DNA from: Candidatus Flemingiibacterium sp.
GTDB taxonomy: Bacteria > Bacillota > Clostridia > Oscillospirales > CAG-272
Reading direction: 5' to 3'
Assembly (NCBI GenBank): GCA_045579745.1
Contig: JAZNMQ010000046.1
Span: 15,301 to 79,300, forward strand
DNA length: 64,000 bases
How positions within the stretch are numbered: position 1 is the stretch's first letter; every line of letters begins with the position of its first letter. The translations under genes and the position numbers were made by a program. This document shows, one piece after another, positions 383-61,439 of the stretch. Under the pieces are notes generated by a model that worked only from the letters and a program-made list of their open reading frames with translations, was not told the origin of the DNA and ran no database searches.

Positions 383-1645
383 ATGAAAAACTGTTTTTAC
401 CCGGCGGATATTTTACTCCCGAAATTTGCAAACGACGCTGACAAAATGCGTCTGTGGTCGTGTGTGGCGTGCGACCAGTACACATCTGAGCCCGAATATT
501 GGGATGATGTCGAAAAGCTTGTCGGGGATGCACCGTCAACGCTTCGCGTGACCTTGCCCGAGATTTATCTATCTGAGGCTGAAAAGCGAATCCCAGCGAT
601 AAACTCGATGATGGCGGACTATATGGAGGATGTTTTTGTCGAGCACAAAAATTCGATGATATTTCTCGAGCGTCATCAAAACAACGGAAAAATACGCCGC
701 GGACTTGTAGGCGCGATTGACCTCGAATGCTATGATTATAACAAGGGCGCGAAATCGCTTGTCCGCGCAACCGAGGGAACGGTTCTTGAGCGTATCCCAC
801 CTCGCATAAAGATTCGAGAGGGTGCGCCGGTTGAGCTTCCCCACATTATGATTCTTATCGACGACCCCGAGAAGAGTGTAATCGAACCGCTTCTTTCAAA
901 TTCTGCTGAATTTGAAGCTGCCTACGATTTCGAGCTCATGAAGAACGGAGGCAGAGCAGTAGGGCGCTTTTTGCCGCAGACGGAGATCGAGCGCGTTTCG
1001 ATGGCACTTGAATCGCTTTGCAAAAAGGCGGAGGCAGAACAGATGTGTGATTCGCCGCTCGTATTTGCTATGGGCGACGGAAACCATTCGCTTGCATCTG
1101 CAAAGGCATTTTGGGAACAGCTTAAGTTAACACTGAGCGATGCAGAACGTGAATCTCACCCTGCGAGATACGCACTTTGCGAAATCGTAAACATTCACGA
1201 TGATGCGCTTGAGTTTGAGCCGATATACAGAGTCGTATTCGGCGCAGAGCCGATGGAGCTTATGGGTGAGCTTGAGAGCTACATAAAAAATCTTCCCGCG
1301 AGCGACATTCAGGCTCAGGCGTTTGAGTTCTTTGCAGGAGCCAAATCTGGCAAGTTTACAATCGACAATCCCACATCACTTCTTCCCGTGGGCTCGCTCC
1401 AGGCGTTCCTTGATAGTTATGTCAGATCACACGAGGGCGTTTCAATTGACTATATTCATGGCGTGGAGTCAACCAAAAAGCTCGCATCAGGCGAAAAAGC
1501 GATCGGATTCCTGTTTGAGGGAATGGGCAAGAGTGAGTTGTTCCCGACGGTCGTTCGTGACGGTGCGCTTCCGAGAAAGACGTTTTCCATGGGAGAGGCG
1601 GACGATAAGCGCTACTATCTTGAAGCGAGAAAAATTCGTGCATGA
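383..1645 (+). CDS. DUF1015 family protein (function unknown)
   Basis: Track ORF 371..1645. I prefer ATG 383, just after GGAGGA at 373-378. Segments such as RRGLVGAIDLECYDY and VRATEGTVLERIPPR resemble the DUF1015 family. Confidence 0.65.
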   Translation: MKNCFYPADILLPKFANDADKMRLWSCVACDQYTSEPEYWDDVEKLVGDAPSTLRVTLPEIYLSEAEKRIPAINSMMADYMEDVFVEHKNSMIFLERHQNNGKIRRGLVGAIDLECYDYNKGAKSLVRATEGTVLERIPPRIKIREGAPVELPHIMILIDDPEKSVIEPLLSNSAEFEAAYDFELMKNGGRAVGRFLPQTEIERVSMALESLCKKAEAEQMCDSPLVFAMGDGNHSLASAKAFWEQLKLTLSDAERESHPARYALCEIVNIHDDALEFEPIYRVVFGAEPMELMGELESYIKNLPASDIQAQAFEFFAGAKSGKFTIDNPTSLLPVGSLQAFLDSYVRSHEGVSIDYIHGVESTKKLASGEKAIGFLFEGMGKSELFPTVVRDGALPRKTFSMGEADDKRYYLEARKIRA

Positions 1646-57121: not shown

Positions 57122-57826
57122 ATGAAAATTTCACTTTGCATACCGATGTATAATGAAAGCAGTATCATAGAAGCCACGTTGAATACTGTATCCGAATGGA
57201 TGAAGTCGAACATTGAGGATTATGAGGTAATATTCTCTGATGACGGCAGCACGGACGGCTGCCGCGCGACGGTGGATCGCTTTGGAGATCCAAGAATTCG
57301 CTCTGTAGGGTATGAGCATAACATGGGCAAGGGTGCGGCTATACGAAACGGTGTTCTGAATTCGACGGGCGATATCGTAATTTTTACGGACTGCGATTTG
57401 GCGTATGGACTCGATGTTATAAAGCAGGCTATTGCAGAATTTGAAGCCGATTCCGAGGCGGATGTTGTTATCGGTTCGCGCAATCTGTCGCAGGACGGCT
57501 ATCAGGGATATACCTTCATTCGCAGGCTTGCGTCAAAGGTGTATATTAAATGCCTTGCAATTGCGGCAGGGTTCAAGCTTTCAGATTCACAGTGCGGCTT
57601 TAAATGTTTTCGCGGCGATATCGCACGCAAAATCTTTTCAACATGCGAGGTCAACGGCTTTGCGTTCGATTTTGAAGTGCTCATCAAGGCGAAAAATCTC
57701 GGAGCCAAGATTGTTGAAACTCCTGTAAAGGTAATAAATCATCGCGAGAGCAAGGTTAATGTTCTTCGCGATAGTATCAAAATGCTTCGCGATGTGAGTA
57801 AAATAAAGAGAAATAATAAAAAATAA
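57122..57826 (+). CDS. glycosyltransferase family 2 (dolichyl/polyprenyl-phosphate glycosyltransferase-like)
   Basis: ISLCIPMYNE, FSDDGSTDG, FTDCDLAY (the DxD) and QCGFKCF motifs. Confidence 0.8.
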   Translation: MKISLCIPMYNESSIIEATLNTVSEWMKSNIEDYEVIFSDDGSTDGCRATVDRFGDPRIRSVGYEHNMGKGAAIRNGVLNSTGDIVIFTDCDLAYGLDVIKQAIAEFEADSEADVVIGSRNLSQDGYQGYTFIRRLASKVYIKCLAIAAGFKLSDSQCGFKCFRGDIARKIFSTCEVNGFAFDFEVLIKAKNLGAKIVETPVKVINHRESKVNVLRDSIKMLRDVSKIKRNNKK

Positions 57827-57976
57827 TGAATTTGGCAGGCAAGCTCGAAAGGGCGCGGGACATGTTTTTCGGTGAATAATTGTTTACAAGCACTTTCAGT
57901 CGTCTTGGCGGAGTCGGGTTTGGGAAAATATTTGTTGGAGCAGATGTGACTTTACAATAATTTCATAAAATAGCAC

Positions 57977-58004
57977 TTGAAATTTTTTACATGTATGATA
58001 TAAT
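57977..58004 (+). promoter_or_regulatory. sigma-A-type promoter of the Cys/acidic small membrane protein gene
   Basis: TTGAAA (57977-57982), 16 bp spacer, TATAAT (57999-58004), with an extended -10 TGa. Confidence 0.55.
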
Positions 58005-58048
58005 AAAAACATGATAATACTATCTATTGAAAAGGACGGTAATGAATT

Positions 58049-58366
58049 ATGAAAAATTGCAAAAAAAGCTCGGGTCTTACTCCGTTGCAGCTTACACTGA
58101 TAATTGTGGGTGCAATTATCGCCGCTGTCGGAATAATGGTTTTGATTATGCAGATTTGCAAGAAGAAGTGCAACAAGAATGCAATTGATGCTTGCTGCTG
58201 CGAGTGCGAGCCGGATGAGCTCGACGGTTGGGAAATCGATGATGATATTCTCAGAGAGCTTGATTTCGATGATGAGGATGAATGCGATTGTGACTGCTGC
58301 TGCGATGAATGCGATTGCGAAGCTGACGCGCTTGAAGCAGAAAGCGATGCCGAAAACAATAATTAA
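58049..58366 (+). CDS. small single-pass membrane protein with Cys/Asp/Glu-rich tail
   Basis: 105 aa. TM LTLIIVGAIIAAVGIMVLIM, then a 62-aa tail with 11 Cys and 28 Asp/Glu by my count (DACCCECEPDE ... DEDECDCDCCCDECDCEAD). It has its own promoter (57977-58004) and a strong terminator (58374-58405). Confidence 0.5.
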   Translation: MKNCKKSSGLTPLQLTLIIVGAIIAAVGIMVLIMQICKKKCNKNAIDACCCECEPDELDGWEIDDDILRELDFDDEDECDCDCCCDECDCEADALEAESDAENNN

Positions 58367-58373
58367 TTAGCAC

Positions 58374-58405
58374 AAAGCTCCTTCGGTTATTCCCGAAGGA
58401 GCTTT
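58374..58405 (+). terminator. rho-independent terminator after the Cys/acidic small protein gene
   Basis: AAAGCTCCTTCGG (58374-86), a 6-nt loop, CCGAAGGAGCTTT (58393-405). The stem is a perfect 13 bp. Confidence 0.8.
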
Positions 58406-58511
58406 AAGTATTTTGAGAGATGTATCAAAAGCATGGAATGGTTAAACATATTATGGGTTGAGGCGGATTTTCAGATTTTGAAAATTGCAAGACTCATTAG
58501 GATTCGCGTTT

Positions 58512-58556
58512 GTAGAAACATCCCCTCGAAAGCGGCTTTCACTCTTCGAGGGGATG
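58512..58556 (-). terminator. rho-independent terminator after the HExxH lipoprotein gene
   Basis: Minus strand reads CATCCCCTCGAA, a loop, TTCGAGGGGATG (12 bp), followed by TTTCT. Confidence 0.8.
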
Positions 58557-58560
58557 TTGT

Positions 58561-59859
58561 TTATGTGAGATATTCCAACCATTCGGCTTTCAATTCTTCA
58601 TATGGTTTCCCGAGGTTTCCCTCGATATCTTGCGTATAATGCGCCGTGAGCACCTTGTCGAAGCCGTAAGTGTCGACGAGATATGTTATCAGCGAGGTTG
58701 ACTGCCAGTAGGTCAATTCGCTTCCTATGAATGAGAATTCTTTCTTGTTCACAAGCTCATACGCCTCGCCGATCGTTGTACTATGATGAGAGTCAAGCTC
58801 CAGCGACGCGACAATATCACTGTATAGACGCAGATCAAAATGATCAACATGATCGTATTTTCCGCCGCGGGCGGTGTACTGGTCAAAGATCATTTTATAC
58901 ATCTTCGCTGTTTCATCGCCTGCATCCGCGCGCGCATCGAAATATCCGCTCTGCGCCATCACGAGAAGCTGTATGTAGCCGGTGGCAATCTGATCGTTGA
59001 ACCCAAGCGCTTTTCCAAGATAATTACAAATGCCCTCACTCAGCCAAATATGGTTGCTTTCGTGGATGCCCATGGCATGAACGGCTTCGTGCAGCGCGGA
59101 GGAGGAATCGTTGATGTACATATTTCCCGTATCATACATGGTTTTTGAACAGCCGCTACCGTCAAAGGTCATGTAGAAATTGTAATCACGATCGGTTTCC
59201 AGCCCTTCGTCGAGGTTATTTGCTTTCAGATATTCGATCATATCATAAAGTCCGGTCGTATTGAAGTAGAGGAAGCCATGATACTGTGAAGGACTTCCTG
59301 CATCAAAATCCTCGAAATAATAGGTCACGCGATCAAATGCGATGATATATTTGTAGGTGCCGTCCGACGAAAAATCCATTGACGCAAGAAGCGCCTCCAC
59401 CTCAGGTGCCTGAGTATAGGCGGTGTCAAGTCCAAGCGATTTCAGATAGGCGCTTTTATATTCGAGGCGCTTGTCTATATCGAGAAGCGCCTCGACACCG
59501 TATTCATCAAGGATAAAGCGGAACAACGCCTCTGCCACAGGGACGGATGTTTCTTTGTCGTAGGTAAAGAAATGGTCGAACAGTGTAAGATAAGTCATGT
59601 TTGTCGGGATAGCAAAAAAATCCTTGAGATCCTGCGGTTGCTTATCATTTTCGTATGCCAAAAGTCCATAGGACAGCCATTCTTCGCTGCTGGCACGAAC
59701 CGCTTCAAATTGGTCGGGAACTGTTCCCGTTGATATCTCGGCTGTGTTTTCTGTATCTTGATGATCTTCGCTTTGTGGTGGCTTGGGTGCATTTGTGCAT
59801 GAAACAAATGAAATCATCACAAGCAACAGAATGACTAAAAAAGCAAATTTAATTTTCAT
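58561..59859 (-). CDS. putative lipoprotein, peptidase MA (gluzincin)-like HExxH protein
   Basis: Lipobox MISFVSC at residues 15-21. HEAVH followed 13 residues later by WLSEG, reminiscent of HExxH...WLNEG in M1-type gluzincins. Otherwise unassigned. Confidence 0.6.
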   Translation of the reverse strand: MKIKFAFLVILLLVMISFVSCTNAPKPPQSEDHQDTENTAEISTGTVPDQFEAVRASSEEWLSYGLLAYENDKQPQDLKDFFAIPTNMTYLTLFDHFFTYDKETSVPVAEALFRFILDEYGVEALLDIDKRLEYKSAYLKSLGLDTAYTQAPEVEALLASMDFSSDGTYKYIIAFDRVTYYFEDFDAGSPSQYHGFLYFNTTGLYDMIEYLKANNLDEGLETDRDYNFYMTFDGSGCSKTMYDTGNMYINDSSSALHEAVHAMGIHESNHIWLSEGICNYLGKALGFNDQIATGYIQLLVMAQSGYFDARADAGDETAKMYKMIFDQYTARGGKYDHVDHFDLRLYSDIVASLELDSHHSTTIGEAYELVNKKEFSFIGSELTYWQSTSLITYLVDTYGFDKVLTAHYTQDIEGNLGKPYEELKAEWLEYLT

Positions 59860-59861
59860 CG

Positions 59862-60104
59862 TTATTCCTCAAATTCCTCAGCGCAGCATGCGTCGCGCGC
59901 GGCAATTATCTTGCGGCGCTTCAGCTCATCCTTGGAATCGAGATAGAGAAGCGCGGTTCCAATGGCGGCACTTATTACAGAAAAAGCTAATATGACCGTA
60001 GACATACTTTTTTTCTTTCTGAACATCATTATGAACACAGCGAGTAATGAGGTTGACTGAGCTAAAAGAGTTAATCCTATATAAAATTTATTCTTGTTCA
60101 GCAT
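59862..60104 (-). CDS. small two-pass membrane protein with acidic Cys-Cys C-terminus
   Basis: 80 aa with two hydrophobic helices and a tail ending RDACCAEEFEE. Its stop lies 2 nt before the lipoprotein start. Sits 28 nt downstream of prfB. Confidence 0.45.
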   Translation of the reverse strand: MLNKNKFYIGLTLLAQSTSLLAVFIMMFRKKKSMSTVILAFSVISAAIGTALLYLDSKDELKRRKIIAARDACCAEEFEE

Positions 60105-60132: not shown

Positions 60133-61245
60133 TTATTTTTTGCCTGCCATCTGCTTGAGATATGCGTTAATGAATCCGTCAATATCTCCGTCCATTACAG
60201 CAGAAATATTTCCATCCTCGTATTGAGTGCGATTGTCCTTTACAAGCGTGTAAGGCATGAAAACGTATGAACGGATTTGACTACCCCATTCAATGTTGTT
60301 CTTAATACCCTGAATGTCTTCAATGCGTGCGAGGTTCTCGCGCTCCTTTATCTCCATCAGCTTCGATTTCAACATCTTCATAGCGGTTTCCTTGTTCTGA
60401 AGCTGACTGCGCTCGGTCTGACAGCCGACAACAATACCCGTCGGAAGATGAACGATTCGAATCGCCGAGTCTGTCTTGTTGACGTGCTGACCGCCGGCAC
60501 CCGAGGAACGGTGAGCGGTTATTTCAATGTCTTCATCACGGATCTCGATTTTTCCGTCGTCCTCAAATTCGGGCATAACCTCGACGGATGCAAATGATGT
60601 GTGCCTGCGTCCCGATGAATCGAACGGTGATACGCGAACAAGACGGTGAACGCCTGCTTCACTCTTTAAGTAACCGTAAGCGTTAGTGCCCTCAATCATG
60701 ATAGTAGCACTCTTTAAGCCTGCCTCTTCGCCGTCAAGCCAGTCAACAAGCTTTACATTATAGCCATGTGCCTCGCCCCAACGAGTATACATACGGTAGA
60801 GCATAAGAGCCCAGTCCTGCGCCTCTGTGCCGCCTGCACCGGGATGGAAGGAAACGATCGCATTATTTTTGTCGTACTCTCCGGAGAGAAGCACCTCAAT
60901 ACGCTGACGCTCTTCCTCTTTGACAACCTCAGCAAGCTCGGCTTCGACCTCGGGAATAATGCTTTCGTCATTTTCCTCTATGCCCATCTCAGCGAGAGTA
61001 ATGGCATCCTCGAGCTTGTTTTTTAAATTCTGAAACGCACCTATCTTGTCCTTTTTCTGCTTGATCTTTTGAAGAACGCGGCTCGAATTGTCAGAATCGT
61101 TCCAAAAGTCCGGGCTCATGGTTGCTTCTTCATCTGCCGCAACCTCGGCTATGAGCTGTTCTATTCTGAGTGCAGATTCCAGCTCATCTATATTTGCACG
61201 CATGTTCTGAAGCTTATATTTTGCTTCTTCAAGTTGAATAATCAA
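60133..61245 (-). CDS. prfB: peptide chain release factor 2 (uninterrupted, no programmed frameshift)
   Basis: SPF tripeptide (RVSPFDS) and GGQ (SGAGGQHVNK). TTG start 6 nt after AGGAGG. A single continuous frame of 370 codons. Confidence 0.93.
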   Translation of the reverse strand: MIIQLEEAKYKLQNMRANIDELESALRIEQLIAEVAADEEATMSPDFWNDSDNSSRVLQKIKQKKDKIGAFQNLKNKLEDAITLAEMGIEENDESIIPEVEAELAEVVKEEERQRIEVLLSGEYDKNNAIVSFHPGAGGTEAQDWALMLYRMYTRWGEAHGYNVKLVDWLDGEEAGLKSATIMIEGTNAYGYLKSEAGVHRLVRVSPFDSSGRRHTSFASVEVMPEFEDDGKIEIRDEDIEITAHRSSGAGGQHVNKTDSAIRIVHLPTGIVVGCQTERSQLQNKETAMKMLKSKLMEIKERENLARIEDIQGIKNNIEWGSQIRSYVFMPYTLVKDNRTQYEDGNISAVMDGDIDGFINAYLKQMAGKK

Positions 61246-61373
61246 TTGAATCCTCCTGAAAAATAATTACTTATAGGATATTATATCATAAATTAACCTT
61301 GAACTTTTTGATTCCCAAGATTTAAGATCAAATAAAATTCGCCGCAGCAGGGCGGAGGCATCTATTTGCTTTT

Positions 61374-61403
61374 ATTATAGCATATCGTTGTACTGCATTT
61401 CAA
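61374..61403 (-). promoter_or_regulatory. candidate sigma-A-type promoter upstream of prfB
   Basis: Minus strand reads TTGAAA (61398-61403), 18 bp spacer, TATAAT (61374-61379). A second extended -10 (TGaTATAAT) lies nearer to prfB. Confidence 0.45.
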
Positions 61404-61439
61404 GTGGGTAGAGAATTTTACATAATATTAATCGTTTAT

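Follow-up and report, generated by a model that had tools for sequence, protein, structure and literature searches.

The open reading frame at 58049-58366 on the plus strand of the 64,000-nucleotide stretch of Candidatus Flemingiibacterium sp. DNA analysed here (the window) is a genuine, always monocistronic gene. It encodes a 105-aa protein (the mini-protein) that carries, as structure modelling supports, one transmembrane (TM) helix, followed by a Cys-rich and strongly acidic tail. About 54 homologues were found, and the family is restricted to uncultured Clostridia of gut and rumen, namely Candidatus Flemingiibacterium and its relatives. Binding of metal ions by the tail at the inner face of the membrane is tentatively proposed as its function.

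Composition and predicted structure of the mini-protein

Translation of the frame gives 14 Cys, 16 Asp and 12 Glu in the whole protein, a share of 13% for Cys and 27% for Asp/Glu. The original prediction had described a product of 105 aa with one TM helix and a 62-residue tail holding 11 Cys and 28 Asp/Glu, and the recount of the 62 aa from NAIDACC onwards was exact. The Cys residues are arranged as CCC, CxC and CCC-x2-C-x-C, and the TM segment contains none. The segments of the protein, together with the other features of the locus, are listed in Table 1.

Table 1 Features of the mini gene, its product and the surrounding locus. Coordinates are window positions unless a residue range or another locus is named.
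Feature	Position	Strand	Description
Mini gene	58049-58366	+	CDS, 105 aa
Lys-rich N-terminus	residues 1-12 of the 105-aa protein		
TM helix (hydrophobic core)	residues 13-36 of the 105-aa protein		
Basic stretch	residues 37-43 of the 105-aa protein		CKKKCNK
Cys cluster 1	residues 49-53 of the 105-aa protein		ACCCEC = residues 48-53
Acidic Trp motif	residues 56-75 of the 105-aa protein		
Cys cluster 2	residues 79-90 of the 105-aa protein		followed by the acidic C-terminus
14-nt direct repeat, two copies	58277-58290, 58304-58317	+	GATGAATGCGATTG; DECDC per copy, in Cys cluster 2
A/T-rich 21-nt element	57950-57970	+	CTTTACAATAATTTCATAAAA; abuts the -35; spans about -61 to -41 relative to the predicted start
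Sigma-A-type promoter	57977-58004	+	-35 TTGAAA 57977-57982, 16-nt spacer, -10 TATAAT 57999-58004
Ribosome-binding site (RBS)	58030-58040	+	AAAAGGACGGT; about 9 nt 5' of the ATG
Intrinsic terminator hairpin	58374-58405	+	13-bp stem
Antisense ORF	58024-58359	-	111 aa, Ser/Gln/His-rich
Lipoprotein-like ORF	58561-59859	-	432 aa
Second small membrane protein	59862-60104	-	80 aa; two TM helices, KRRK, then ARDACCAEEFEE
prfB (release factor 2)	60133-61245	-	one uninterrupted ORF
C_GCAxxG_C_C gene (PF09719)	L001 7433-7912; L002 6292-6753; L013 18-~310		

An AlphaFold2 (AF2) model was computed on a 46-sequence alignment. It places a helix at residues 12-45, with a mean pLDDT of 86-95 for the 10-residue blocks across residues 11-40, and a second, short helix at residues 65-70, on the acidic motif. 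Since the remaining tail stays at a pLDDT of about 50 outside this short helix, disorder is predicted for the tail, at least as long as no ligand is bound.

A 14-nt direct repeat encoding DECDC twice had also been pointed out at the DNA level, and both copies were located. A non-overlapping repeat of at least 14 nt arose in 1.7% of 5000 shuffles of the tail codons (P 0.017), and the closest orthologue, P0002, is without the repeat. Because the tail is built from very few codons, the repeat is only mildly beyond chance.

Homologues and selection on the reading frame

A word-indexed search with the single protein as query returned only the protein itself and one 103-aa relative, P0002. An exhaustive HMMER search with a two-sequence profile against 1.84 billion representative proteins (cut-off E<=1e-3) gave 18 representative clusters, 16 of which are 81-121 aa long with the same layout. 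A 17-sequence profile then recovered 54 proteins, which brings the family to about 54 homologues of 81-121 aa. A contig scan with the 46-sequence alignment gave 15 loci. The sense frame is intact in about 54 homologues, and the TM helix and the motifs are kept at 30-73% identity.

The comparison of the window gene with P0002 gave a pN of 0.21 and a pS of 0.77 (saturated), with the strongest constraint in the middle segment (residues 44-76) and the weakest in the last 25 codons. The mini gene is the fastest-evolving gene of its locus, at 63% identity to P0002 versus 72-95% for the neighbours. In more distant genomes the mini-protein is at 38-45% identity, GT2 at about 70% and prfB at about 87%, and the mini gene is still retained.

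These data also bear on the view that there is no gene here at all, and that the frame is a chance product of a GAT/GAA/TGC-rich stretch or that the antisense ORF is the real gene. The low-complexity codon content does keep several frames open, including the Ser-rich antisense one. However, the homologues preserve the sense frame along with the TM helix and the motifs, pN is far below pS, and it is for the sense strand that promoter, RBS and terminator show conservation; the view is effectively refuted and is left with almost no probability. The antisense ORF, which mirrors the mini gene, is no gene but a shadow cast by the GAT/GAA/TGC-rich composition of the sense strand. The claim that the mini gene is a real, independently expressed unit and no shadow ORF was thus supported by the intact frame, by pN<pS and by the conserved signals, and the homologue check proposed with it, performed by profile search, found the same layout of TM helix and acidic tail in the homologues, with a widely varying number of Cys.

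Anatomy of the family

The N-terminus of the family is Lys-rich and comprises 3-17 residues. The TM helix, with the consensus LKLALIITGSIVAAAGI, is the most conserved part. L15, A26 and W61 are invariant, and T20, G21, S22, I23, A25, A27, G28, K38, K39, C50, D64, D66, L71 and D74 are each at least 90% conserved. A small-residue face runs along the helix (T20 G21 S22 / A25 A26 A27 G28), and the juxtamembrane KKK stretch, which includes the conserved K38 and K39, follows it.

At least three Cys precede the Trp in 49/53 members (Cys cluster 1), with CC in 42/53 and CxC in 47/53. The acidic motif W-D-I-D-E-D-x-L surrounds the invariant W61. The second Cys/acidic region is fast-evolving, and Cys cluster 2 is variable, with 0-7 Cys per member. 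About half of the members carry an amphipathic acidic C-terminal helix, ISAAVDEAIEAIEAV, and the window protein is without it. The tails of the family contain 7.5 Cys on average (range 1-13), or 11% Cys and 38% Asp/Glu, and have a mean net charge of -21 (range -14 to -30). Of all members, the window protein is the richest in Cys, and P0012 has a single Cys after the helix. As judged from the aligned homologues, the conservation shows selection on the TM helix, on the juxtamembrane Lys and Cys cluster, and on the Trp/acidic motif.

Promoter, upstream element and terminator

The near-consensus promoter of the original prediction was recovered by a promoter scan, which matched 11/12 positions and added an extended -10, with TG before the -10 hexamer (-16 TATG at 57994-57997). 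The sequence GTATGnTATAAT is invariant across 15 aligned homologous loci, and the promoter-to-ATG distance is 41-44 nt in 12 of the 16 loci scanned. The -35 agrees with TTGACA at 4-5 of 6 positions in 10/16 scanned loci (TTGAAT/TTGAAA-like), and the RBS is GAAAAGGAAGGTA or a near variant in most of the 16. Between the window and L001, the locus of P0002, the 64 nt 5' of the start codon are 83% identical despite saturated synonymous sites. The perfect 13-bp terminator was likewise found as described: all 13 pairs match, 7 of them G-C, the loop has 6 nt, and the T-run behind the hairpin is weak. A strong hairpin lies 3' of the stop codon in nearly all of the 16 scanned homologous loci. Judged by its signals, the mini gene is probably strongly transcribed.

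The 21-nt element upstream of the -35 has a single occurrence in the window at up to 3 mismatches, where 0 are expected by chance. Its 16-nt core is exact in 11 related loci, once per locus and always before the homologous gene, and the element is discernible also in non-syntenic loci with another gene context. The position at about -41 to -61 suggests an UP element; the element may also be a regulator site. By eye, 11/15 positions agree with the CodY-box consensus.

A metagenome scan with the 20-nt core of the element gave 49 stretches, and one of them is a family locus (L034). In the unrelated metagenome contig L045 (about 1241-1260, minus strand), the same 20-mer lies before another strong promoter, TTGACA-17 nt-TGTGGTATAAT. 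No regulon was definable from the 20-nt core in the metagenomes, where the stretches besides L034 and L045 are unrelated A/T-rich matches. The same 20-mer was also seen as tandem 21-nt repeats directly 5' of a conserved ORF (MKFANTKRSQE...) in the freshwater contigs L025, L028, L040, L055 and L066, and these repeats are probably the operator array of another element. A Fur-box-like sequence at 58010-58025, picked by eye, was dropped because it is not conserved in L001. The Rfam search of 57700-58700 gave only sub-threshold C/D-box noise, at 17-23 bits against gathering scores of 40-75.

Hosts and genomic context

The carriers among the GTDB representative genomes are metagenome-assembled genomes (MAGs) labelled Candidatus Flemingiibacterium or uncultured Clostridia, Eubacteriales, Ruminococcus or Lachnospiraceae, and they originate from the gut of ruminant, roe deer, chicken and human, including the rumen. 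The NCBI taxonomy places the genus Flemingiibacterium in Clostridia incertae sedis. Viral contigs contained no relatives of the mini-protein, and plasmids gave no tblastn match for the family member P0015.

Nine other distinct genomes hold the mini gene in the same slot (GT2 -> mini gene -> <- prfB), with the conserved order sortase, RlmA-like methyltransferase, GT2 and mini gene, then prfB on the opposite strand. In the syntenic locus L001, the order is AdoHcyase, sortase, RlmA-like methyltransferase, GT2, C_GCAxxG_C_C and the mini gene, followed on the opposite strand by a small protein with two TM helices (the 2-TM protein), prfB, GT1 and ABC-F. The context is wholly different in 10 further genomes (infC; RNase H with nifS and nifU; AraC-family regulators; fucosidase). 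AraC-type regulators and fucosidase were the only genes that recur in the non-syntenic loci; AraC is multi-copy, and this recurrence was set aside as coincidental.

No conserved neighbour in the window or in 24 homologue loci is feoB or another metal-related gene, and there is no FeoB among the nine largest ORFs of the window (at least 458 aa), all of which are core housekeeping genes. In a single case (L008, 8006-9800), a mini-gene homologue lies about 700 nt 5' of a cysteine desulfurase gene (Aminotran_5) and a NifU_N scaffold gene. In some relatives, GT2 and the mini gene are separated by a C_GCAxxG_C_C gene (PF09719, encoding a putative redox-active protein), which overlaps the GT2 stop codon. 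This gene is absent from the window, and no remnant of it was found in the spacer 57827-58048.

On the other side of the mini gene, the prfB ORF has a TTG start behind an AGGAGG site, and no CTTTGA programmed-frameshift site was seen in 61151-61420. The lipoprotein-like ORF has a signal peptide, an FVSC lipobox-like site and an HEAVH (HExxH) motif, with a weak Peptidase_MA_2 match (E=0.0055). Among the related loci it occupies the gap between the mini gene and prfB in the window only. Elsewhere, this gap holds an HTH/TPR protein (L001), a phosphodiesterase, an ADP-ribosylglycohydrolase and an HTH protein (L002), or nothing (L004, L010 and L012). The differing cargo indicates that the gap is a variable insertion spot.

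The neighbouring 2-TM protein

The 2-TM protein belongs to a family of 18 members in the same host clade, with a layout of two TM helices, KRRKIIAARDACC, and an acidic and aromatic tail. The window copy is shorter than its orthologues, which measure 96-114 aa, and ends just past ...ACCAEEFEE. The loss of the tail falls exactly at the start of the lipoprotein gene, whose GAGGAA RBS lies within the last codons. Since the 2-TM gene starts only 28 nt past the prfB stop, prfB, the small protein gene and the lipoprotein gene probably form one operon.

A DACC-x-E motif had been proposed as common to both small proteins. The motif is indeed present, as AIDACCCE in the mini-protein and ARDACCAE in the 2-TM protein, but it is statistically marginal, with z-scores of 0.5-4.1 in within-segment shuffles of 15 pairs of the two families. 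Within the mini-protein family, DACC is found only in the window protein and P0002. The alignment of the two families by hhalign gave a probability of 77% (E=2e-5, 54 columns). Both families share the clade, the locus (in convergent orientation) and the order of TM, basic stretch, CC and acidic tail; the 2-TM family differs in its two TM helices, its conserved KRRKIIAARDACC and its aromatic-acidic tail without further Cys clusters. At least four syntenic genomes (L004, L010, L012 and L013) have no 2-TM gene next to the mini gene. The likeness beyond composition appears marginal, and the 2-TM protein may be a distant paralogue of the mini-protein.

Relation to PF12669 and to other known systems

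PF12669 (FeoB_associated) comprises small Cys-rich ORFs of Firmicutes and Bacteroidetes that lie downstream of or are fused to feoB (PMC8749426). Their Cys motif, Cx3-5Cx2-3Cx6-8C, is presumed to bind iron; the role is unproven, and even translation is unproven (PMC8749426). Membership was judged by the Pfam gathering score of 27 bits for the 44-position model. The window protein scored 14.0 bits (E=0.061), under the gathering score, with residues 18-53 aligned to profile positions 3-36 of 44, a span that covers the TM helix, the basic stretch and the Cys cluster. Among its siblings, P0015 passes at 30.8 bits, P0013 reaches 26.8, and P0022, P0057, P0054, P0031, P0021 and P0038 reach 18-24 bits; P0024 and P0048 gave no match to the model. 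Three family members have precomputed PF12669 matches.

The layout of PF12669, in which a single N-terminal TM helix, a Lys-rich basic stretch and a Cys-rich segment follow in this order, is found in the window protein and in its family. In contrast, the family is longer (81-121 aa versus 44 model positions) and has a Lys-rich N-terminal extension, a Trp/acidic motif, a second Cys cluster and a polyacidic tail in addition. Its Cys spacing is CC/CxC, and a regular-expression search for Cx3-5Cx2-3Cx6-8C found the pattern in 0/53 members, the window protein included. In neither the window nor the homologue loci with flanking genes examined does the mini gene follow feoB or form a fusion with it. 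Because the window score is below the threshold and the 44-position model consists largely of TM and low-complexity sequence, homology to PF12669 is suggestive and unproven. The similarity is suggestive of a long-tailed offshoot of PF12669-type small membrane proteins. We infer that the family is a peripheral, long-tailed variant with no strict membership and that it is no dedicated Feo subunit. The original prediction had recognised no described family, which is only partly right because the protein sits at the edge of PF12669: P0015 passes the gathering score, and the window protein falls well under it.

The mercury transporters MerF and MerT are small membrane proteins with vicinal Cys pairs, and they exemplify a soft-metal transporter in which such a pair directly follows a TM helix plus basic cluster (PMC5715351). 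The likeness of the mini-protein to MerF lies in the TM helix, the basic cluster and A-D-A-C-C (RKRQADACC in MerF, KKCNKNAIDACC in the window protein, KRRKIIAARDACC in the 2-TM protein), and the MerF sequence was confirmed against annotated merF genes. Homology to MerF was rejected and the likeness kept as an analogy, as hhalign gave 0.7% for the mini-protein family and 5% for the 2-TM family, with only the DACC residues aligned. The window mini-protein also differs from MerF/MerT in that its TM helix contains no CC pair and no mer operon or mer gene lies nearby.

Metallothioneins, such as the bacterial SmtA and BmtA, resemble the window protein in their very high Cys content, in CC/CCC/CxC arrangements and in having no predicted fold without metal. 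Metallothionein-type Cys clusters (CC, CxC or CxxC) are present among the 14 Cys of the 105 aa. Unlike the metallothioneins, the window protein is membrane-anchored, has its high Asp/Glu content and has no fixed Cys framework beyond one column. PDB sequences gave 0 matches to the family profile at E<=1, PHROGs gave no match and NCBIfam gave nothing meaningful.

Proposed function and alternative explanations

Firmicutes generally exclude Cys from exported proteins. Because of this exclusion, and because more Lys/Arg follow the helix than precede it (family means of 4.2 and 2.9), the tail most likely faces the cytoplasm. The topology is ambiguous on present sequence grounds, with a net charge of about +2.3 on both flanks of the helix and Cys also in the N-terminal segment of 16/53 members. 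In the proposed mechanism, the juxtamembrane thiolates and the surrounding carboxylates would serve as ligands for divalent or soft metal ions at the inner membrane face, with Fe2+ or Zn2+ the most plausible and another soft or borderline metal conceivable. The protein would then be a membrane-tethered, metallothionein-like buffer or hand-off module, and its conserved TM helix would dock through the small-residue face to itself or to a membrane partner. This reading as a whole is given somewhat less than an even chance. Binding of a metal or an Fe-S cluster, or a redox role of the tail, is plausible from the composition and the Cys column conserved to at least 90%. Against a metal role stand the lack of a conserved metal-related or feoB neighbour and the Cys count and spacing, which are not fixed.

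Conservation is stronger in the TM helix and in the Trp/acidic motif than at most Cys positions, so a protein-protein role fits as well as a metal role. The protein might accordingly be a metal-independent adaptor or regulatory subunit of a membrane complex, whose TM helix docks on a partner, with the Cys incidental or a redox switch; the W-D-I-D-E-D-x-L-x-E-L helix and the polyacidic disordered tail would be the protein-binding motif. The best conserved positions (the TM helix, W61, D64, D66, L71 and D74) agree with this, as do the swings in Cys number (1-13 in the tail, 0-7 in cluster 2) and the short AF2 helix that falls exactly on the acidic motif. The extra amphipathic helix ISAAVDEAIEAIEAV of many members and the fact that metal genes were not found nearby point the same way. 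However, C50 is conserved to at least 90%, at least three juxtamembrane Cys are kept in 49/53 members, and the 11% Cys of the tails is far above that of typical bacterial proteins. There is also no conserved neighbour as a candidate partner, and sibling members match PF12669. An adaptor is regarded as somewhat less probable than the metal-binding reading.

A reversed orientation, N-in/C-out, would make the Lys-rich N-terminus a signal anchor and the tail an external binder that captures divalent cations in the reducing gut. With 2-5 Lys/Arg ahead of a hydrophobic helix, the N-terminus does look like a signal-anchor n-region, the membrane potential favours export of acidic tails, and the hosts are strict gut anaerobes, so that external thiols could stay reduced. 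This orientation would nevertheless need the export of the KKK stretch, at least 90% conserved, right after the helix, and of Cys that Firmicutes tend to keep out of exported proteins. The PF12669 match, which begins at profile position 3, puts the helix near the N-terminus of that model; if that N-terminus is outside, the Cys part would lie inside. An external tail is considered improbable. The chance is slighter still that the protein is processed into a Cys-rich peptide that is secreted or modified (a RiPP, ranthipeptide- or SCIFF-like), with its N-terminal part as the leader. The small Cys-rich ORF in Clostridia would suit such a precursor, and one member has a faint match to the radical-SAM-modified peptide model NF038169 (E=0.036). 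Yet no radical SAM, protease or transporter gene lies near the mini gene in the annotated loci examined, the supposed leader is a conserved 24-residue hydrophobic TM helix, and the gene is monocistronic with its own terminator; this leaves the precursor a very slim chance.

An extension of the metal-binding proposal was also considered. The family would be an unrecognised class of abundant membrane-tethered, disordered, metallothionein-like proteins of uncultured gut Clostridia, oligomeric via the conserved small-residue TM helix, in which vicinal thiolates and carboxylates of several chains form a metal or Fe-S centre at the inner face independently of Feo, with the 2-TM 'ARDACC' protein as a sister module. 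This broader picture is speculative and, on balance, doubtful.

Significance

Annotation of small membrane proteins is very incomplete. For the PF12669 group, neither a function nor translation has been demonstrated (PMC8749426). Herein, a well-delimited and clearly selected set without feoB linkage is described, with specific and testable handles in the conserved TM helix, the Cys cluster, the Trp/acidic motif and the unusually well conserved promoter. In either case the findings would concern only researchers on small proteins and on metal homeostasis. If the tail binds no metal, the family would be another lineage-specific small protein. If the tail does bind metal, Cys-rich juxtamembrane modules would act beyond Feo in anaerobic gut Firmicutes.
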